A DNA stretch of 64,000 nt, from NCBI GenBank assembly GCA_026388095.1, contig JAPLKL010000044.1, positions 3,993 through 67,992 of the forward strand, in the 5' to 3' direction. The notes beneath the pieces were generated by a model that worked only from the letters and a program-made list of their open reading frames with translations, ran no database searches and was not told where the DNA came from. Positions within the stretch are counted from its first letter, which is position 1, and every line of letters starts with the position of its first letter. Made by a program: the position numbers and the translations under genes. Shown here in pieces: positions 16,218 to 24,872 of the stretch. Source of the stretch: Elusimicrobiota bacterium. Lineage in GTDB: Bacteria > Elusimicrobiota > Elusimicrobia > UBA1565 > UBA9628.

Positions 16218-16595
16218 ATGCCAGAGCAGAAGAAGGTCCTCGTGATCGACGACGACATAACCCTGCAGGAGTTCTACACCCAGGTCCTGTCGGCCCATAT
16301 AGTGAAATTCTGCACCAGCGGAGAGGACGCCATAGCCTGGCTCGAGGCCGGCGCGACCTTCGATCTCATCTTCCTGGATCTCGACCTGTTGGGCATGTCC
16401 GGCTTCTCGGTCCTGGATAGGTTCAAGGCGATGAACACAGGCAAGTTCCCCCCGGTGATCGTCAACTCCTGCCTCACCGACGCTGAGACGCAGAAGCGGG
16501 CTCTGGAGAATGGGGCTGCGGCCTTCATGTACAAGCCGATCTCCATGGATAACCTCTTGGGCCTGACCCAGAGGTTCTTCAGCGCGGCGAAGTGA
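16218..16595 (+). CDS. Single-domain response regulator (CheY-like receiver).
   Basis: VLVIDDD...DLIFLDLDLLGMSG...AFMYKP. Immediately downstream of the kinase. Confidence 0.8.
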   Translation: MPEQKKVLVIDDDITLQEFYTQVLSAHIVKFCTSGEDAIAWLEAGATFDLIFLDLDLLGMSGFSVLDRFKAMNTGKFPPVIVNSCLTDAETQKRALENGAAAFMYKPISMDNLLGLTQRFFSAAK

Positions 16596-18037
16596 AGCTA
16601 TTCTTCCTGCTGGGCCTGTGCGCCTGGCCCGCGCTGGCGCGGGCCGGCGCGGAAAAATGGTTTTTCAGCAAGCCCAGGACCGTGCGGGTCTACCTTACGG
16701 CCTCGGCCGGCGGCCAGCGCCTGGCCCTGACGGAGACTTCGCCCTTCGCCGACTTCGGCCAGCCGCTGGAGTCCCAGCCCTGCGTGTTCGTGGACCCCTC
16801 CAAAGCCTTCCAGACCGTGCTCGGCATCGGCGGAGCCCTGACCGACGCGGCGGCCGAGACCTTCGCGAAGCTGCCCAAGGACAGGCAGCGCGAGCTCCTG
16901 CGCTCCTATTATGACGTCAAGGACGGCATCGGCTACACCTTGGCCCGCACCAACATCCACAGCTGCGACTTCTCCAGCGAGAGCTACACCTACGTCGCGG
17001 ACGGCGACCGCGCCCTCAAGACCTTCAGCGTGGCCCACGACCGGAAGTTCCGCATCCCGCTGATCAAGAGGGCCATAGCCGCGGCGGGCGGCGCGCTGAC
17101 CCTCTTCGCCAGCCCCTGGAGCCCGCCGGCCTGGATGAAGGACAACGGCAGCATGCTGCAGGGCGGACATCTCAAGCCCGAGTTCTTCCAGACCTGGGCC
17201 GACTACTACGTGCGCTTCATCCGCGCCTACGAGGCCGAGGGCATCCCGGTCTGGGGCATGACCATCCAGAACGAGCCCATGGCCAAGCAGACCTGGGAGT
17301 CCTGCGTCTTCACGGCGCCGGAGGAGCGGGACTTCCTCAAGAACCACCTGGGTCCGACCTTGGCCAAGGCGGGGCTGGGCGACCGGAAGGTCCTGGTCTG
17401 GGACCACAACCGGGACTTGATGTACCAGCGGGCGCAGACGATCTTCGGCGATCCGGAGGCGGCCAAGTACGCCTGGGGCCTGGCCTTCCATTGGTACGAG
17501 AACTGGTCCGGGGGAGAGCCTCAGTTCGAGAACGTCCGGCGCGTAGCCGAGGCCTTCCCGGGCGTCAACCTCTTCCACACCGAGGGCTGCAACGGACCTT
17601 TCGACACGAAGCGCATCGACGACTGGGGCTGGGGCGAGAGCTACGGCCGGTCCATGATCAACGACTTCAACAACGGCGCGGTGGCCTGGACGGACTGGAA
17701 CGTGCTCCTCGATGAGCGGGGCGGTCCCAACCACGTGGGAAACTTCTGCTTCGCTCCGGTCCACGCCGACACCAGGACCGGGGACCTGCACTACACCAGC
17801 GCCTACTACTACATCGGGCATTTCTCCAAGTTCATCCGGCCGGGCGCGCGCCGGGTGGCCAGCCTGAGCAGCCGGGACCCGCTGCTGACCACGGCCTTCC
17901 GCAACGGCGACGGCAAGCTGGCCGTGGTGGTGATGAACCGGGGCGACAAGGATATCGCTTATCGCCTGTGGATCGAGGGCCAGGCCGCGGCGCTCACCAG
18001 CCCTGCGCACTCGATCGCGACCTTGCTGGTCGACTAG
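16592..18037 (+). CDS. Secreted glycoside hydrolase family 30 (glucosylceramidase-like).
   Basis: Signal peptide MKLFFLLGLCAWPALARA (GTG start). GH30 motifs: FASPWSPPAWMK, IQNEP, GLAFHWY, HTEGC. Confidence 0.8.
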   Translation: MKLFFLLGLCAWPALARAGAEKWFFSKPRTVRVYLTASAGGQRLALTETSPFADFGQPLESQPCVFVDPSKAFQTVLGIGGALTDAAAETFAKLPKDRQRELLRSYYDVKDGIGYTLARTNIHSCDFSSESYTYVADGDRALKTFSVAHDRKFRIPLIKRAIAAAGGALTLFASPWSPPAWMKDNGSMLQGGHLKPEFFQTWADYYVRFIRAYEAEGIPVWGMTIQNEPMAKQTWESCVFTAPEERDFLKNHLGPTLAKAGLGDRKVLVWDHNRDLMYQRAQTIFGDPEAAKYAWGLAFHWYENWSGGEPQFENVRRVAEAFPGVNLFHTEGCNGPFDTKRIDDWGWGESYGRSMINDFNNGAVAWTDWNVLLDERGGPNHVGNFCFAPVHADTRTGDLHYTSAYYYIGHFSKFIRPGARRVASLSSRDPLLTTAFRNGDGKLAVVVMNRGDKDIAYRLWIEGQAAALTSPAHSIATLLVD

Positions 18038-18269
18038 CAGGCTGCTGATAAACCCTCCAGCGGAAAGGACGGTGTCCGGACACAGTCCTTTCGGTAGCGG
18101 GCAACAGTCCGTCCCCGAATTGGCGAGCCGAAGGCTCGCCAGTCGCGCCGAAGGCGCCATCCTTCGTGCAACCTATCGGCTGGGTTCTGCCGCCCCGCTT
18201 CGCGGGTCGGTTGCGCCCGGCAGACGGCCGCCGGGCGCTCGCAGAACGGACTTTATCAGCAGCCTGCTA
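18035..18269. mobile_element. MITE-like 235-bp structured intergenic element bounded by 18-bp perfect terminal inverted repeats.
   Basis: TAGCAGGCTGCTGATAAA at 18035-18052 and TTTATCAGCAGCCTGCTA at 18252-18269. Each TIR contains the stop codon (TAG) of a convergent gene, so both genes end TAG+CAGGCTGCTGATAAA. The interior is packed with hairpins (GGAAAGGACGGTGTCC/GGACACAGTCCTTTCGG; GGCGAGC-CGAAG-GCTCGCC; GCGCC-GAA-GGCGC). Confidence 0.5.
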
Positions 18270-18776
18270 GCCCTTGAAGACGATGAATTTGCGCGCGGCG
18301 AAGTTGATGGCCAGGGACGCGGCGGCGTTGGCGGCGTAGGCGTACGTGGTGGGCAAGCCGGTCCATTGGATCAGGGCCCAGCCCAGGGCGGTCCCGATGG
18401 CGAAGCTGGCCGCGGAGACCGCGTAGAAGAGCGCGAACTCCATGGCCTTGCTGTGCCGGCCTCTGGTGAAGACCCACAGGACGTTGGCGACATAGGCCGT
18501 CAGGTTGGAGAACATGAAGGCGATGACCTTGTCCCAGACGTAATGGGCCGAGCGGACGCCCTCAGGGATGGCCGCCGTGTGCAGGCCGAGCAGGCGCGCG
18601 GCGGGGTCGCCGGGATTGAGGGCGGGCAGAAGCAGGACGGCGGCGAGGTAGAAGACCAGGACGTCCACCGCGGTGGCGAGGACGCCGCAAACGGCGTATT
18701 TGGCGAACTGGACCAGCGGGTGAGCATCCCGCCGGAGGCATTGCTCCCAAAGGCGCCGCGCGTATCGCCCCATCAT
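18267..18776 (-). CDS. GtrA-family membrane protein (polysaccharide synthesis/translocation).
   Basis: 169 aa, 4 TM. YAVCGVLATAVDVLVFY...AARKFIVFKG is typical GtrA-like. Confidence 0.7.
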   Translation of the reverse strand: MMGRYARRLWEQCLRRDAHPLVQFAKYAVCGVLATAVDVLVFYLAAVLLLPALNPGDPAARLLGLHTAAIPEGVRSAHYVWDKVIAFMFSNLTAYVANVLWVFTRGRHSKAMEFALFYAVSAASFAIGTALGWALIQWTGLPTTYAYAANAAASLAINFAARKFIVFKG

Positions 18777-18844
18777 AGGGGGGATGATACCAAATCGACG
18801 AGTAATCCCTTGATGCCGGGGGTACTCCCAGGCTTCCGGACCGC

Positions 18845-19576
18845 TCAGAGGTTGATGTCGACCTGCAGGGTGAAGGTGTTCTTGCCGGCCACGGCGCGGT
18901 TGTTGTAGATGTCGTAGCCGAGGATCACGCTGGTCTTCTCGGAAAAGGCCCAGGAGAAGCCCAGGTTGGTGGCGCCCGCCAGCGACTGCCCGCCCTGATA
19001 GTCCACGGCGAGCCAGAGCTTGTCCGATATCTCCTTCATGGTCCGGTCCCAGGAGAGCAGGACCCCGTTGTTGGCCACATGCCCCTGCTCATCGCGCAGA
19101 ACGGCGCCGTTGCCGCCGTAGTAGCCGGCGGAGAGACGGCCCACCTTCGGCAGGGTCCCGGCGGCCAGGCCGTAGACGATGTCCTGGTTGGTGAACCCGT
19201 TCTTGGTCCCGATGTTGTAGCCGCCGATCGCCAGGGCGGGGGACCACTCGGCCAGGGAGTTCTCCGGCGTGCCCAACTTCCCGTGGAAATAGAGGGGGTT
19301 GTTGTCGAGGACCTTGTCGCCCTGATACATCAGGTCGAATCCGGTCTCGGCCTGTATCTGTTTTGTGGGCAATATACCGATGGTGGGGCCGATCATGGAG
19401 ACCGGGCCCTTCCTGGTCCCGGTGTTCTCGTCCTGGCTGCGCAGGTAGGCGTCGATGTTGAGGTGCAGGACCTTGTAGGGCTGGATATCCGTGGAAGGGA
19501 TCCAGATCTGCGTCGAGGGCGTGGCTCCCGCCGCGGCGGGAAAGCCCAGGGCCAACAGCGCGATGAAGATCTTCAT
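18845..19576 (-). CDS. Outer-membrane beta-barrel porin, co-transcribed downstream of amt.
   Basis: MKIFIALLALGFPAAAGA signal peptide (AGGA RBS 8 nt upstream). Ends ...FTLQVDINL. About 80% identical to the paralogue at 24007-24738. Confidence 0.7.
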   Translation of the reverse strand: MKIFIALLALGFPAAAGATPSTQIWIPSTDIQPYKVLHLNIDAYLRSQDENTGTRKGPVSMIGPTIGILPTKQIQAETGFDLMYQGDKVLDNNPLYFHGKLGTPENSLAEWSPALAIGGYNIGTKNGFTNQDIVYGLAAGTLPKVGRLSAGYYGGNGAVLRDEQGHVANNGVLLSWDRTMKEISDKLWLAVDYQGGQSLAGATNLGFSWAFSEKTSVILGYDIYNNRAVAGKNTFTLQVDINL

Positions 19577-19655
19577 GGCGTTCATCCTATCAGTTCGCGA
19601 GGGACCGACGGGGCCCAGACAGGCGGCGTAGCCTGTCTGGGCCGTTGCGCGGACG

Positions 19656-20870
19656 TCAGGTCTGCAGGTAAGCCGTCTCTCCATGCACGCTCTCGTCGAG
19701 GCCCATTTCCTGTTCCTCAGCCGAGGTGCGTACCGGGGTGATCATGTTGATGAGGAACAGCATGACGTAGGTGAAGATGAAGGCGTAGATGGCGGCGCCC
19801 ACCACGGCGATGCCTTCCTTCAGGAAGAAGTTCACGTTGCCGTGGATGAGGCCGTCGGCGCCGTTGGGGTTGACGAACTTGGTGGCGAATATCCCCAGGC
19901 AGAACACTCCCAGAACCCCGCCCACGCCGTGCACGCCCCAGACGTCGAGCGCGTCGTCCCAGTTCATCTTGTTCTTGATGTTGACCGCGATGTAGCAGAC
20001 CACGCTGGAGGCGATGCCGATGAGGACCGCGCTCTTGACCGTGACGTAGCCGGCCGCGGGCGTGATGGTGGCCAGCCCCGCGATGGAGCCGGTCAGCAGC
20101 CCCACGAACTTGGGCTTCTTCTCGATGACCCAGGCCAGGATGAGCCAGGTGGTGGCCGCGAAGGAGGCGGCCACGTCGGTGTTGACGAAGGCCTGCGCGG
20201 TCACGGCGTCGACCTTGAGCTCGCTGCCCGCGTTGAAGCCGTACCAGCCGAACCACAAGAGGCCCGTGCCCAGGGCGACCAGCGGGATGCTGTGCGCGGC
20301 GGCGTCCGAGACCTTGCGCTTGCCCACGAAGAAGACCGAGGCCAGCGCCGCCATGCCGGCGGAGGCGTGGACCACGATGCCGCCCGCGAAGTCGAGCACG
20401 CCGTGCTTGGCCAGCAGGCCGTTGCCCCAGACCATGTGCGCCAGCGGGAAGTACACGAACAGCAGCCAGGCCACCAGGAAGATCAGGTAGGCCTTGAAGT
20501 TGACCCGGTTCGTGAAGGCCCCGGTGATGAGCGCCGGGGTGATCTGGGCGAACATCATCTGGTAGGCGAAGAACACGAACACCGGGATGCTGCTCACGCC
20601 GGAGAAGGCCTGGTTGAGGCTCATGCCGCGCATGAAGGCGTTGTCGAGGTTGCCGATGATGGCTCCTTCCCCGCCGCTGAAGCAGAGGGAATAGCCGCAG
20701 ACGTACCAGAGCACGGTGGTGACGCCCATGGAGACGAAGCTCTGGATCATGATGGCCAGGACGTTCTTGCGGCCGACGAGTCCGCCGTAGAAGAACGCCA
20801 GGCCGGGAGTCATGAGCATGACCAGGCTGGTGGCCACGAGCATGAATCCGGTATTGCCGGTGTCGAACAT
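19656..20870 (-). CDS. amt: Ammonium transporter (Amt/MEP family).
   Basis: 404 aa with Amt signatures (DFAGGIVVHASAGMAALA, GWYGFNAGS, VWGVHGVGGVLG). Confidence 0.9.
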   Translation of the reverse strand: MFDTGNTGFMLVATSLVMLMTPGLAFFYGGLVGRKNVLAIMIQSFVSMGVTTVLWYVCGYSLCFSGGEGAIIGNLDNAFMRGMSLNQAFSGVSSIPVFVFFAYQMMFAQITPALITGAFTNRVNFKAYLIFLVAWLLFVYFPLAHMVWGNGLLAKHGVLDFAGGIVVHASAGMAALASVFFVGKRKVSDAAAHSIPLVALGTGLLWFGWYGFNAGSELKVDAVTAQAFVNTDVAASFAATTWLILAWVIEKKPKFVGLLTGSIAGLATITPAAGYVTVKSAVLIGIASSVVCYIAVNIKNKMNWDDALDVWGVHGVGGVLGVFCLGIFATKFVNPNGADGLIHGNVNFFLKEGIAVVGAAIYAFIFTYVMLFLINMITPVRTSAEEQEMGLDESVHGETAYLQT

Positions 20871-21031
20871 GTTCTCTCTCCTTCCTTATTGAAATGACGG
20901 CCCTAGGGCCGGGAAGGCCCCCATGCCAGGAAACACTAGCTAACTGGGCGCGGGCGCCGAATCAGGGTTTTCCTGAGAACGGCCCGCCAAATCCCTGAGA
21001 CGGCGCATGTGTTATAATCACGAAGACCAGC

Positions 21032-22153
21032 ATGCAGACATCCCCCAAGGCCGTGGGCGGCCCCGCGCGCGGTCTCGAGCAGCGCCAGCAGAGGCGCATC
21101 CGGATACTCCACCTGTTCCAGGAGAGGGTCAAGGAACTGGCCGCGACCATGCTCCAGGATGACGCGCAGGACATCGCCGCGCTCCTGCGCGAGGTGGTCG
21201 CCATGCTGCCTTCGGCTTGGCAGTACCCGGCGTCGGCCTCGGCCCGGATCCGGCTGGACCAGCAGGAGTTCCGCGCCCCGGATTTCGAGGCCACCCCATG
21301 GCGGCAGAGCGCGGCCTTCGTCACGAGCGACGGACGCCGAGGCCTCATCGAGGTGGTCTATCTCAAGGAGTTCCCCCAGGCGGCCGAGGGCCCCTTCTTG
21401 GCCGAGGAAAGGAAGCTCATCGATTTCCTGGCCGAGATGTTCCGCGGCTTCATGGATAGGAAGATCGCCCGGCAGGCTCTGGTGGCTTCCCGCGACTCCT
21501 ACCAGGAGCAGCTCCGTTGTCTGGCCGCGCAGCTTTCGCTGACCGAGGAGCGGGAACGCCGCGCCCTCGCGGCCGACCTGCACGACCACATCGGCCAGAC
21601 TCTGGCCGCGGCCCGGCTCAAGCTGAGCGCCCTGGCCGGGACTCGCGAGACCGAGGCGGTCCGGGCCCTGTTGGATGAGGCCATCCAGTACACCCGCTCG
21701 CTGACCTTCGAGCTGAGCTCCCCGGTCCTTTACGAGTTGGGCTTGGCGCCCGCCCTGGAGCAACTGGCCGAGCGGATGCAGGAGAAGCACGGCCTCGGCA
21801 TCGAGGTCCATGATGACGGGGCCGCCAAGCCCATGGACGACGAGGTCCGGGTCGTGCTGTTCAAGGCGGTGCGGGAGCTGCTCATGAACGTGGTCAAGCA
21901 CGCCCGCGCCGGCCGGGCCACGGTCGCCCTGCGCAAGGTCGACCGGGCCGTCGAGATCTCCGTGGCGGACGACGGGGTGGGCTGCTCCGCCGAACAGGCC
22001 GCGGCTTCGGCCGGGTCGGGGGGCTTCGGGCTTTTCAGCATCCGGGAAGGGCTGCGCCACTGCGGCGGAGAGTTCGCGATCCGGCCCCGGGCAGGGCGGG
22101 GGACCGAAGCCACTCTCAGGGCTCCGCTCCGGGCCGCGGACCGGGGGCATTGA
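21032..22153 (+). CDS. Cytoplasmic sensor histidine kinase, HisKA_3/NarL-partner type, with N-terminal sensory (GAF/PAS-like) domain.
   Basis: No TM segments. ERERRALAADLHDHIGQTL is the HisKA_3 H-box. HATPase_c (LLMNVVKHARA...GGFGLFSIRE). Confidence 0.8.
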   Translation: MQTSPKAVGGPARGLEQRQQRRIRILHLFQERVKELAATMLQDDAQDIAALLREVVAMLPSAWQYPASASARIRLDQQEFRAPDFEATPWRQSAAFVTSDGRRGLIEVVYLKEFPQAAEGPFLAEERKLIDFLAEMFRGFMDRKIARQALVASRDSYQEQLRCLAAQLSLTEERERRALAADLHDHIGQTLAAARLKLSALAGTRETEAVRALLDEAIQYTRSLTFELSSPVLYELGLAPALEQLAERMQEKHGLGIEVHDDGAAKPMDDEVRVVLFKAVRELLMNVVKHARAGRATVALRKVDRAVEISVADDGVGCSAEQAAASAGSGGFGLFSIREGLRHCGGEFAIRPRAGRGTEATLRAPLRAADRGH

Positions 22154-22154
22154 C

Positions 22155-22802
22155 TTGGAGACGCGGCTGCTGCTCTGCGACGACCATAAGCTCTTCCGGG
22201 AAGGCCTGAAGACCCTGCTGGAGAAGAGGCCGGGCCTGCGGGTCGTCGCCGAGGCGGCCGACGGCCCGGGCGCGGTGGCCGCCAGCCTGGAGTCCCGTCC
22301 GGACGTCGTCATCATGGACATCTCCATGCCCAGGCTCAACGGCATCGAGGCGACCCGCAAGATCCTGGAACTGCGCCCGGATTGCCGGGTCATCGTCTTA
22401 TCCATGCACTCGGACCGCCGCTTCGTCAAGGAGGCCTTGAAGGCCGGCGCGTCGGCCTACCTGCTCAAGGACTCGGCTTGCGACGAGCTCTGCGCAGCGG
22501 TCGCCGCTGTAGCGGAAGGCAAGACTTACCTGAGTCCCGCCATCGCCCATATCGTGGTCGCGGAATGCGTGGGCCGCGGTTCCCGGGATGACGGGGCGGC
22601 GTTCTCCGTGCTCTCCGCCCGCGAGCGCGAGGTCCTGCAGCTCCTGGCCGAGGGCCGGTCGACCAAGCAGATCGCCCTGCACCTGCGCCTCAGCGTCAAG
22701 ACCGTCGAGACCCACCGCATGCAGACCATGCGGAAGCTCGACATCCACAGCATCGCCGGCCTGACCAAGTACGCGATCCAGGAGGGGCTCGTCTCGTTAT
22801 GA
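22155..22802 (+). CDS. NarL/LuxR-family response regulator.
   Basis: Receiver (LLLCDDHKLFREGL...VVIMDISMP) and C-terminal LuxR HTH (LSAREREVLQLLAEGRSTKQIALHLRLSVKTVETHR). TTG start. Confidence 0.85.
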   Translation: METRLLLCDDHKLFREGLKTLLEKRPGLRVVAEAADGPGAVAASLESRPDVVIMDISMPRLNGIEATRKILELRPDCRVIVLSMHSDRRFVKEALKAGASAYLLKDSACDELCAAVAAVAEGKTYLSPAIAHIVVAECVGRGSRDDGAAFSVLSAREREVLQLLAEGRSTKQIALHLRLSVKTVETHRMQTMRKLDIHSIAGLTKYAIQEGLVSL

Positions 22803-24010
22803 GCATCGCCCGGAAGGTGTTCTTCGTGGCCGCCAGCTTCGCCTTGCCCATCATCGTGCTGGCCTTCTTGGTGGTGCGCAGCATCAACGAGCACATCACC
22901 TTCGCGCGCTGCGAGCTGGCCGGGACCGCCTACCAGCGCCCCTTGGAGGCCCTGCTCTGGGACATCCAGGATCACCAACTGTCCGGGCAGGCCGCGGCCT
23001 TGACAGGCACCATCCGCCAGGAGCTGGCGGCCCTGCAGGCCGTGGACCGCCGCTACGGGGTCCTGCTGCAGTTCACGGGCGAGGGCCTGGCCAGGCGCGG
23101 CCGGCAGCTCGCCACCGCGGGCAATCTCCAGCGCGGCTGGGAGCGGCTGGAGGCTCTCAGCTCCCGGGGGAGGTCTCCCGAGCTCGACGCCCAGTACGAC
23201 AAGCTGACCGCCATCATCCAGACCATGATCACGCACGTGGGCGACATGTCCAACCTGATCCTGGACCCGGAGCTCGACACCTTCCATCTCATCACCGACA
23301 CGCTGGTGCTGCTGCCCAAGACGCAGGCGCGCCTGGCGCGGGCCACGGGTGCCGGGCGCCTGGATCATACGGACCGGATGGCTCTGGCCGTCCAGGCCTC
23401 CTTCCTGGAATCGGAGCGCGGACAGATCAAGTCCCATCTGGACACCGCACTCAGCGAGAATTCCAACGAGTTCCACGGCGCCTTGGACTCGTTCCAAAAG
23501 AACGTCCCGATCGCCTACGAGGAGTACGAGTCCGCGGTGAACCGGTTCATCGCCCTGGCCAAGCGGGCCGCCGACGGCGGCCGCCCGGTCGTGCCGGCGC
23601 AGGACTACGTCGCGGCCGGCCGGAGCGCGCGCGAGGCGAGCTTCCGCCTCTGGGACGCGGCCGTCCCCGAGTTGGACCGGCTGCTCCAGGCCCGCATCGA
23701 CTACTACACCAAGCGCAAGGTCGTGGCTTTGCTGCTCTCCGGCCTGGCCCTGCTGCTGGCCTGCCTGTTGGCTTACCGGATAGCGGCCAGCCTGATCCAT
23801 CCCCTCAACCGGATATCCCGCACGCTGACCCCGGGCGCCGACCTGCTCGACGGCAGCGTGCAGAAGCTGGCCGATTTCACCGATAAGGGGGCGCAGGACC
23901 TCACCTCGATGCGCATCACCTGCGACGAGCTCGACGCCCATGCCGAGAATATGCGCAAGACCGCGCGCGAGCTGGCCGCGGTCGTCTTCGGGGACCGCGG
24001 CCGCGCCTAG
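22799..24010 (+). CDS. Membrane-anchored periplasmic sensor-module protein with no output domain (TM, ~280-aa helical periplasmic domain, TM, short cytoplasmic tail).
   Basis: TM1 FFVAASFALPIIVLAFLVV and TM2 VVALLLSGLALLLACLLAYRIAA. Periplasmic part resembles MCP/HK ligand-binding four-helix/NIT-like modules. Start overlaps the RR stop. Confidence 0.6.
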   Translation: MSIARKVFFVAASFALPIIVLAFLVVRSINEHITFARCELAGTAYQRPLEALLWDIQDHQLSGQAAALTGTIRQELAALQAVDRRYGVLLQFTGEGLARRGRQLATAGNLQRGWERLEALSSRGRSPELDAQYDKLTAIIQTMITHVGDMSNLILDPELDTFHLITDTLVLLPKTQARLARATGAGRLDHTDRMALAVQASFLESERGQIKSHLDTALSENSNEFHGALDSFQKNVPIAYEEYESAVNRFIALAKRAADGGRPVVPAQDYVAAGRSAREASFRLWDAAVPELDRLLQARIDYYTKRKVVALLLSGLALLLACLLAYRIAASLIHPLNRISRTLTPGADLLDGSVQKLADFTDKGAQDLTSMRITCDELDAHAENMRKTARELAAVVFGDRGRA

Positions 24011-24738
24011 AGGTTGATGTCGACCTGCAGGGTGAAGGTGTTCTTGCCGGCCACGGCGCGGTCGTTCCAGATGTCGTAGGCGAAGAGCACGCTGGTCTTC
24101 TCGGAGAAGGCCCAGGAGAAGCCCAGGTTGGTCGCGCCCAGCAGATTCTGGCCGCCCTGGTACTCCACCGCGCACCAGAGCTTCTTGGAGATCTCGGCCA
24201 TGGCGCGGTCCCAGGAGACCAGGACGCCGTGGTTGGCCGTATGCCCCTGCTCGTCGCGCAGAACGGCGCCGTTGCCGCCGTAGTAGCCGGCGGAGAGACG
24301 GCCTACCTTCGGCAGGGTCCTGGCGGCCAGGCCGTAGACGACGTCCTGGTTGGTGAATCCGTTCTTGGTCCCGATGTTGTAGCCGCCGATGGCCAGGGCC
24401 GGCGACCATTCGTGCAACGACTTCTCCGGCGTGCCGACCTTGCCGTGAAAATAGAGCGGGTTGTTGTCGAGGGCCTTGTCGCCCTGGTACATCAGATCGA
24501 AGCCGGCCTCGGCCCGGATATCCTGGTAGGGCATGACTCCGATGGTCGGTCCGGTCATGTACATCGGCCCCTTGCGCGTCCCGTTGTTCTCGTCCTGGGT
24601 GCGCAGGAAGGCGTCGAAGTTGAGGTGCAGCACCTTGTAGGCCTGGATGTCCGTGGAAGGGATCAGGATCTGGCCTGAGGGCGTGGCCCGGGCCGGGGCG
24701 GCCAGGGCCAGGATCGACAGCGCGATGAAGGTTCTCAT
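24007..24738 (-). CDS. Outer-membrane beta-barrel porin, paralogue of 18845-19576.
   Basis: MRTFIALSILALAAPARA signal peptide. Long near-identical DNA stretches with the first copy (for example, a ~54-bp exact match at the 3' end). Confidence 0.7.
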   Translation of the reverse strand: MRTFIALSILALAAPARATPSGQILIPSTDIQAYKVLHLNFDAFLRTQDENNGTRKGPMYMTGPTIGVMPYQDIRAEAGFDLMYQGDKALDNNPLYFHGKVGTPEKSLHEWSPALAIGGYNIGTKNGFTNQDVVYGLAARTLPKVGRLSAGYYGGNGAVLRDEQGHTANHGVLVSWDRAMAEISKKLWCAVEYQGGQNLLGATNLGFSWAFSEKTSVLFAYDIWNDRAVAGKNTFTLQVDINL

Positions 24739-24872
24739 GGTCCTCCTGCCGTCCGGAAGTATATCAAACCAGCATCCGCCGCCGCGCCGGCATCTCGGCA
24801 CCCCGGTTCCAAATTGGTATCATAGCCGTAACGTCCCATGCGTCCCGTGCACATATCCCTGAAGGAGGAAAC

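Follow-up and report, generated by a model that had tools for sequence, protein, structure and literature searches.

The 64,000-nucleotide stretch examined here, called the window below, comes from contig JAPLKL010000044.1 (positions 3,993 to 67,992, forward strand) of an Elusimicrobia metagenome-assembled genome (MAG; assembly GCA_026388095.1). In the window, a GH30 glycoside hydrolase gene and a GtrA-family gene point towards each other, and both seem to end within the arms of an inverted repeat that encloses a short, hairpin-rich segment. This arrangement raises a simple question. Do the two stop codons belong to the genes or to the segment between them, and what is that segment? An initial annotation regarded it as a 235-bp element (18035-18269) resembling MITEs (miniature inverted-repeat transposable elements), with 18-bp terminal repeats that supply the stop codons of both genes. 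The segment is very probably a non-autonomous MITE of the IS5 family of insertion sequences (IS), belonging to the IS5 group and the ISRssp10/ISRsp13 clade. The stop codons appear to lie in a duplicated CTAG target and would belong to the genes, not to the element. The best-supported reading of the locus is that a selfish, non-autonomous element of the IS5 group inserted there neutrally.

Terminal repeats and boundaries

The segment is bounded by a perfect inverted repeat of 19 nt, CTAGCAGGCTGCTGATAAA, whose arms (18034-18052 and 18252-18270) enclose 199 nt. The 18-mer that was first reported as the terminal repeat occurs at these two sites only in the whole window, even with up to three mismatches. 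In 100 dinucleotide-preserving shuffles no 18-mer match was obtained with three mismatches tolerated, and none is expected by chance. A perfect repeat that is unique in the window is therefore present, but its length had to be revised to 19 nt with CTAG and to 15 nt without it. The outer four nucleotides of the 19-nt arms are CTAG, the target-site duplication, which is placed outside the element. By this reasoning the element proper would comprise 229 bp (18038-18266) and carry 15-nt perfect terminal repeats, CAGGCTGCTGATAAA. The extent of 235 bp was 3 nt too wide on each side, as the TAG that it included is part of the 4-bp duplication. A 13-bp palindrome, TAGCAGGCTGCTA, had also been described within each arm. 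It is absent; the sequence is TAGCAGGCTGCTG, in which only a 5+1+5 quasi-palindrome (AGCAG-G-CTGCT) exists. The open reading frames (ORFs) that overlap the element are shadow ORFs of the flanking genes or have at most 45 aa.

The boundaries can be set by means of other elements with the same ends. The exact 18-mer was found at 94 loci in a scan of one genome per species. About 35 of them are not ends of mobile elements and were set aside; these include conserved coding sequences of Lachnospiraceae/Mediterraneibacter and Flavobacteriaceae and isolated matches in low-G+C genomes. At about 40 loci the 18-mer forms one end of an element of 121-269 bp with an inverted copy at the other end, the partner ends having been sought with up to three mismatches. 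Within one genome, the interior is conserved between copies, and the sequence outside the repeat differs from copy to copy. Bryobacterales MFD04434.bin.1.48, for example, carries 11 copies, Rhizobiales 7 and Tepidiformaceae 4. The flanks of 46 tabulated pairs are 4-bp YTAR direct repeats, mostly CTAG/CTAG, with some CTAA, TTAG and TTAA. All nine non-palindromic duplications are perfect (CTAA/CTAA at L007, L029, L074 and L093; TTAG/TTAG at L005, L016, L017, L033 and L071). These non-palindromic flanks show that YTAR is the target-site duplication and that the repeat proper begins at CAGG. Application of this rule to the window element gives 18038-18266, with the CTAG on either side as the duplicated target.

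Clustering by interior gave 17 families, including that of the window, whose interiors have no detectable similarity to one another. Their hosts belong to Acidobacteriota (Bryobacterales, Bryobacteraceae, Sulfotelmatobacter, Thermoanaerobaculia), Chloroflexota (Tepidiformaceae, Dehalococcoidia), Binatia, and Alpha- and Gammaproteobacteria, to which the Elusimicrobia MAG of the window is added. A large share of the 18-mer matches are not element ends, as the Lachnospiraceae/Mediterraneibacter loci illustrate. There (L021, L024, L028, L055, L057, L059, L078, L085 and L091), the 18-mer lies inside an apparent conserved coding gene, in the context ...CCATG-TAGCAGGCTGCTGATAAA-T[C/T]TC..., and is unrelated to the mobile element.

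The same ends are also carried by complete insertion sequences. In a Hyphomicrobiaceae MAG (L027), a 1472-bp element begins with CAGGCTGCTGATAAACCCACC and ends with CAGGTCGCTAAAAAA (reverse complement), with CTAG on either side. Its 430-aa transposase is recognised by the NCBIfam model of the IS5 family, NF033581 (1.3e-76; 257.7 bits, where the cut-off is 140), and also matches Pfam DUF772 and DDE_Tnp_1. On plasmids, 232 near-full-length homologues of this transposase were found by tblastn; among them are some that RefSeq names as transposases of the “IS5-like element ISRssp10 family” or of the “ISRsp13 family”. ISRssp10 (1364 bp) has the ends CAGGCTGCTGAAAAA and TTCTTCAGCAGCCTG between two copies of TTAA, and ISRsp13, likewise between TTAA copies, begins with CAGGCCGCTGAAAAA. 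On a Bosea contig (L088), two more transposase copies adjoin such ends. Over the first 26 nt, the left end of the window element agrees with the transposase-proximal IS ends at 24 (L088) and 22 (L027) positions, and its right end agrees with the ISRssp10 ends at 19-20 positions. Beyond about 26 nt, no similarity exists between the window element and the IS ends.

The window element and these four insertion sequences (ISRssp10, ISRsp13 and those of L027 and L088) have in common the 15-nt terminal motif CAGGCTGCTGA[A/T]AAA and 4-bp YTAR duplications (TTAA, CTAG), which is also the type of duplication made by IS5 itself. They differ in that the insertion sequences, 1.36-1.47 kb in length, code for transposases of about 390-430 aa. 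The window element lacks such a gene, and its likeness to them is confined to about 22-26 nt per end. The matching IS ends all come from genomes other than that of the window. Autonomous elements with the same terminal repeats, which had been proposed as a check, thus do exist, outside the genome in question. The element of the window has the size, the lack of a transposase gene, the terminal repeats, the target-site duplication and the IS-matching ends of a MITE. Its initial classification as a MITE is borne out by the terminal repeats, the 4-bp duplication, the lack of coding capacity and the identity of its ends to those of IS5-family insertion sequences and multi-copy MITE families. The coordinates of the element and of the neighbouring features are collected in Table 1.

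A further IS5-family copy, on the Paracoccus yeei plasmid NZ_CP020444.2 (L104, 56.4-57.9 kb), has no YTAR duplication. Mutually inverted sequence lies on its two sides, as does an inverted pair of copies of an IS110-family transposase gene, an arrangement that suggests nested or rearranged insertion sequences.

Table 1. Features at and near the element, with positions in the window.
Feature	Position	Strand	Evidence or remark
GH30 glycoside hydrolase gene	16592-18037	+	Pfam PF02055 (1.3e-75) and PF17189; stop in the putative left duplication
Putative left target-site duplication, CTAG	18034-18037		Holds the GH30 stop TAG (18035-18037, +)
Proposed MITE proper, non-coding, interior 69% G+C	18038-18266		Boundaries from comparison of terminal repeats and target-site duplications
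Left terminal inverted repeat, CAGGCTGCTGATAAA	18038-18052	+	Likeness to IS left ends extends to ~18063
Hairpin 1, 15-nt arms, one mismatch, centre GTCC/GGAC	18063-18092 (arms 18063-18077 and 18078-18092)		Repeat search and folds
Hairpin, 11-bp stem AUUGGCGAGCC-GAA-GGCUCGCCAGU	18119-18143		Minimum-free-energy and centroid structures
Hairpin, GCGCC...GGCGC region	18145-18169		Fold
3' structured domain, two G+C-rich hairpins (~18194-18206, 18212-18237)	18184-18247		Folds
Right terminal inverted repeat, exact reverse complement of the left	18252-18266	-	Inverted-repeat search
Putative right target-site duplication, CTAG	18267-18270		Holds the gtrA stop (TAG on the - strand, 18267-18269)
GtrA-family gene	18267-18776	-	Pfam PF04138; stop in the putative right duplication
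403-aa conserved hypothetical gene	22799-24010	+	GC3 0.93; 100% identical to NTY77_10505; many full-length homologues, 64-81% identity
Porin-like gene 2	24007-24801	-	79% identical to porin-like gene 1 (18845-19684, -)

The stop codons and the insertion site

The ORFs confirm that the GH30 gene and gtrA each terminate in a TAG on the outer margin of the repeat. The two genes had been described as ending with the same 18 nt, supplied by the repeats. This description does not hold, as only CTAG lies in or at the ORFs and the stops precede the remaining 15 nt. Evidence from relatives points in the same direction. The GH30 protein of L096 (Elusimicrobia MAG GCA_028717525.1; 84% identity) aligns to the last residue of the window GH30, and its gene ends in ...GTCGACTAG and GACTAG without any element, the stop of the convergent gene lying 5 nt further. 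Another GH30 gene without the element (L099) ends in GGACTAG. The stop of the GH30 gene is thus already GACTAG in relatives that lack the element. The window GtrA, which is 100% identical to MCX5795910.1 (Elusimicrobia MAG), has the C-terminus ...KFIVFKG*; that of L100 is likewise ...FIVFKG, with a TGA stop, and gtrA of L101 ends in AGCTAG. Since the ends of GH30 and GtrA in the relatives are alike, both window proteins have their native C-termini.

At L101 (2139-2165), AGCTAG is followed by CAGGCGGGCCCGCC, and the first five nucleotides past CTAG, CAGGC, agree with the beginning of the terminal repeat. The agreement is probably due to chance. It is possible that it represents an excision footprint or a degenerate end.

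The proposed course of events is as follows. A transposase of the ISRssp10/ISRsp13 clade, presumably supplied in trans, would bind the 15-nt terminal repeats and insert the element into a YTAR tetranucleotide, whose 4 bp are duplicated in the process. The target in this case would have been a single CTAG in which the stops of GH30 and gtrA, as two convergent genes, overlapped; because CTAG is palindromic, it provides TAG on both strands. The predicted pre-insertion site is ...GTCGA-CTAG-CCCTTGAA..., and the predicted junction of the empty site is GTCGACTAGCCCTTGAAG. Duplication would have left one copy of CTAG to each gene. With a CTAG of its own for each gene, neither protein would be altered, and the insertion would be tolerated.

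Such a site need not be constructed from the model alone. Only 6 kb from the element, a single CTAG at 24007-24010 forms the overlapping stops of two real convergent genes, those of the 403-aa protein and of porin-like protein 2, and is unoccupied. The simple insertion model therefore requires nothing unusual.

A number of observations weigh against this interpretation and have to be considered together. At the window copy itself, the duplication is inseparable from a longer repeat because CTAG is palindromic, so the call rests on the other copies. The initial annotation had raised the prospect of other copies elsewhere, but a second copy of the interior was found neither in the window nor among 107 fetched loci, in two metagenome pattern scans or in the PLSDB plasmids. 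The metagenome scans, one for two repeats with a gap of 185-215 nt and one for the left end CAGGCTGCTGATAAACCCNCC, gave 0 matches each, and the comparison of the element with PLSDB (blastn) gave chance-level fragments only (at most 57 nt, all with E >= 0.2). None of the 94 exact-match loci belongs to Elusimicrobiota. A tblastn search of the 64-kb window with the L027 transposase yielded no homologue, so the window is without a transposase of this clade. In addition, GH30 and gtrA are adjacent in none of the five gtrA contigs and four GH30 contigs, and no clean empty site was found among them.

The last group of these observations concerns gene order. L096 has cNMP-HK-RR-GH30 in common with the window, followed by the orthologue of porin-like gene 2 and the type III glutamine synthetase gene (window 24010 onward). 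The porin-like gene that is convergent to GH30 there is orthologous to the second paralogue of the window (80% identity), with the glutamine synthetase gene next to it in both, and at L096 3404-3415 the GH30 stop CTAG and 5 nt directly precede it. Compared with L096, the window has about 6 kb more (18038-24006), containing the MITE, gtrA, porin-like gene 1, Amt, a 497-aa gene and the 403-aa gene. As the neighbour in L096 is the second porin-like paralogue, the window is larger there by this whole block, of which the MITE is only a part. The block is bordered by a CTAG at either end, and its right border (24007) has no remnant of the repeat. The difference fits an insertion in the window as well as a deletion in L096. 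The element thereby falls on a synteny breakpoint. Rearrangement, instead of one simple insertion, might therefore have joined its flanks, although no observation calls for it.

In this alternative the segment is still a MITE, but the GH30 and gtrA blocks were brought together by rearrangement at or between MITE or IS copies, and the two CTAGs reflect target preference rather than one duplication. It is unlikely, although the element stands exactly at the breakpoint, where L096 skips about 6 kb, and although the relatives that carry gtrA have other genes downstream of it, namely an FAD oxidase gene in L100 and L101 and unidentified genes in L105, L106 and L107. Against it stand the perfection and identity of the two terminal repeats, the lack of any repeat remnant where the block ends on the right, and the existence of the shared-CTAG architecture in unoccupied form in the same genome. 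Insertion of the IS5-group MITE into a shared CTAG is therefore preferred.

The porin-like paralogues of the extra block and its border deserve separate mention. They have about 260-280 aa and a signal-peptide-like N-terminus, and no Pfam match was obtained for them. Their genes adjoin those of the ammonium transporter and glutamine synthetase III, and they may represent a family of outer-membrane channels, so far uncharacterised, that is tied to nitrogen uptake.

Interior hairpins

The interior of the element is non-coding and rich in hairpins, as had been noticed at the outset. Relative to shuffled sequence, the whole 235 nt fold as RNA with z = -9.8 (+ strand) and -8.8 (- strand), and with z = -8.5 when DNA parameters are used. 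Without the repeat arms, the interior still has z = -5.2. The near-perfect stem of 17 bp that had been reported is in fact hairpin 1 of Table 1, with two 15-nt arms and one mismatch.

Such folding invites the view that the 229 bp are a functional structured RNA or DNA module, for example a bidirectional terminator or a cassette in the 3' untranslated region that stabilises mRNA, with the terminal repeat as its closing stem. A fold stability far above that of the shuffled controls would be in keeping with it, and so would the position exactly between two convergent stops, where termination is needed. Moreover, other bacterial MITEs, the Correia/NEMIS elements, act via RNA stem-loops (PMC2229807). 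Nevertheless, nothing beyond the hairpin content speaks for a structured RNA or a convergent terminator. A search of Rfam 15 at a permissive threshold (E <= 10) returned noise only, the best scores being 12-19 bits against gathering scores of 37-50, with E >= 1. No hairpin followed by a T-run, as in an intrinsic terminator, is present on either strand between 17700 and 18600, and a consensus scan of the element region revealed no sigma-70-like promoter. Homologues of the interior were not found in the collections searched, and L096 manages with a 5-nt spacer in the same place.

The comparison with the other elements is also unfavourable to such a module. Sixteen other families with these ends have unrelated interiors, and the z of the interior fold ranges from +1.4 to -8.7. 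Strong structure is thus common among them but is not a shared property. The most structured of the 17, with z = -8.65, is a family of about 240 bp with the same ends in Rhizobium/Pararhizobium/Rhizobiales (L017, L019, L038, L042, L063, L069 and L093). What the families share would be the transposase-binding end and not the structure. Taken together, the module has only a small chance of being the correct explanation.

One other account concerns the type of transposon. IS630 inserts at CTAG and duplicates TA, and the local C-TA-G...C-TA-G pattern would fit a MITE of the IS630/Tc1-mariner type, with a TA-only duplication and an element from G(18037) to C(18267), as well as it fits the 4-bp model, but this account was rejected as having next to no chance, because the whole tetranucleotide is directly repeated in the non-palindromic cases (9/9 perfect), which a TA-only duplication would not give, and because the transposases of the autonomous elements that carry such ends are of the IS5 family (NF033581, DUF772 and DDE_Tnp_1), not of the IS630 type.

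For the IS5-group MITE, which remains the preferred explanation, the interior hairpins are best understood as cargo that now starts the 3' untranslated regions of both genes. It is possible that they have a secondary role at the two 3' ends as a side-effect of the insertion, e.g., in termination or mRNA stability.

Known relatives and landing on stop codons

The kind of element, its target rule and the way in which it is mobilised are already known. The initial annotation had envisaged a previously undescribed MITE family, but IS5-group MITEs with CTAG/YTAA duplications have been published (MITEPsy1, PMC3189936), and the ends of the window element match those of ISRssp10 and ISRsp13. A full-text literature search for the repeat string and for ISRssp10/ISRsp13 returned unrelated primer matches only, or nothing. 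Among published elements, MITEPsy1 of Pseudomonas syringae pv. phaseolicola comes closest. It was described by Bardaji et al. (2011, PMC3189936) as an element of 100 nt with ends derived from the IS5-family ISPsy2 and a 4-nt duplication of CTAG or YTAA. It is present in six copies together with its parent IS in the same genome, and its transposition was shown in an entrapment assay (PMC3189936). Both elements are short and non-coding, with IS5-derived terminal repeats, a 4-nt duplication and a CTAG/YTAA target, and the repeat of MITEPsy1, GGAAGGTCTGAAAAAGCC, has a pattern related to CAGGCTGCTGA[T/A]AAA of the window type. In contrast to the 100 nt of MITEPsy1, the window element has 229 bp. 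It also differs in being found as one copy, with no parent IS seen, in having a different, hairpin-rich interior, and in its host, a member of Elusimicrobiota.

A parallel is known from eukaryotes. Tourist-type MITEs are mobilised by the transposases of PIF/Harbinger, the eukaryotic relative of IS5 transposases. MITEs of this kind have only the terminal repeats in common with the autonomous element, and short targets containing T/A are duplicated. They differ from the window element in their 3-bp TWA duplication, their eukaryotic hosts and their copy numbers of hundreds to thousands. Among bacteria, the Correia/NEMIS elements of Neisseria are likewise small, have terminal repeats, lie near gene ends and give rise to transcripts that fold into stem-loops (PMC2229807). 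Their target is TA, and RNase III processing, IHF sites and promoter activity have been documented for them (PMC2229807). Their ends are unrelated to those of the window element, and the latter is known from sequence alone, whereas Correia/NEMIS are functionally documented (PMC2229807).

The position of the window element at two stop codons is not an isolated case. Of 88 element ends, 19 have a duplication whose TAG or TAA is the stop of an open frame with 200 codons or more, compared with 6 of 176 control frames (Fisher p = 5.5e-6). In 7 of 8 such frames, Pfam domains run to the C-terminus. Landing on stop codons is a recurrent outcome for this group of elements. It can be attributed to a target that contains a stop triplet and to selection against insertions that break genes. 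Within the 64-kb window, CTAG occurs at 27 sites, whereas about 199 are expected from the base composition (66% G+C), which corresponds to an approximately 7-fold under-representation. There are 73 YTAR sites in the window, and 20 of them are found where an open frame of 150 codons or more ends.

These observations allow a broader, tentative proposal, which we regard as conceivable but doubtful. MITEs with CAGGCTGCTGA[T/A]AAA ends might form a cross-phylum group (at least 17 unrelated interiors in at least five phyla) that is preferentially kept on stop codons, where the YTAR duplication regenerates the stop, so that the landing is “gene-neutral”. The hairpin-rich versions, including that of the window, could then have come to serve convergent genes as spacers or insulators between their 3' ends in compact G+C-rich genomes, in which about one quarter of the YTAR sites are stops.

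For annotation, the locus reduces an apparent sharing of 18 nt by two genes, with stops supplied by repeats, to a simple rule, namely the duplication of CTAG by an IS5-type insertion. The frequent landing on stop codons can mislead gene callers and repeat finders about the boundaries between genes and elements. For the family itself, the comparison shows that one 15-nt end, the putative transposase-binding site, is common to many unrelated MITE families and to named IS5 elements across distant phyla, which now include an Elusimicrobiota MAG.

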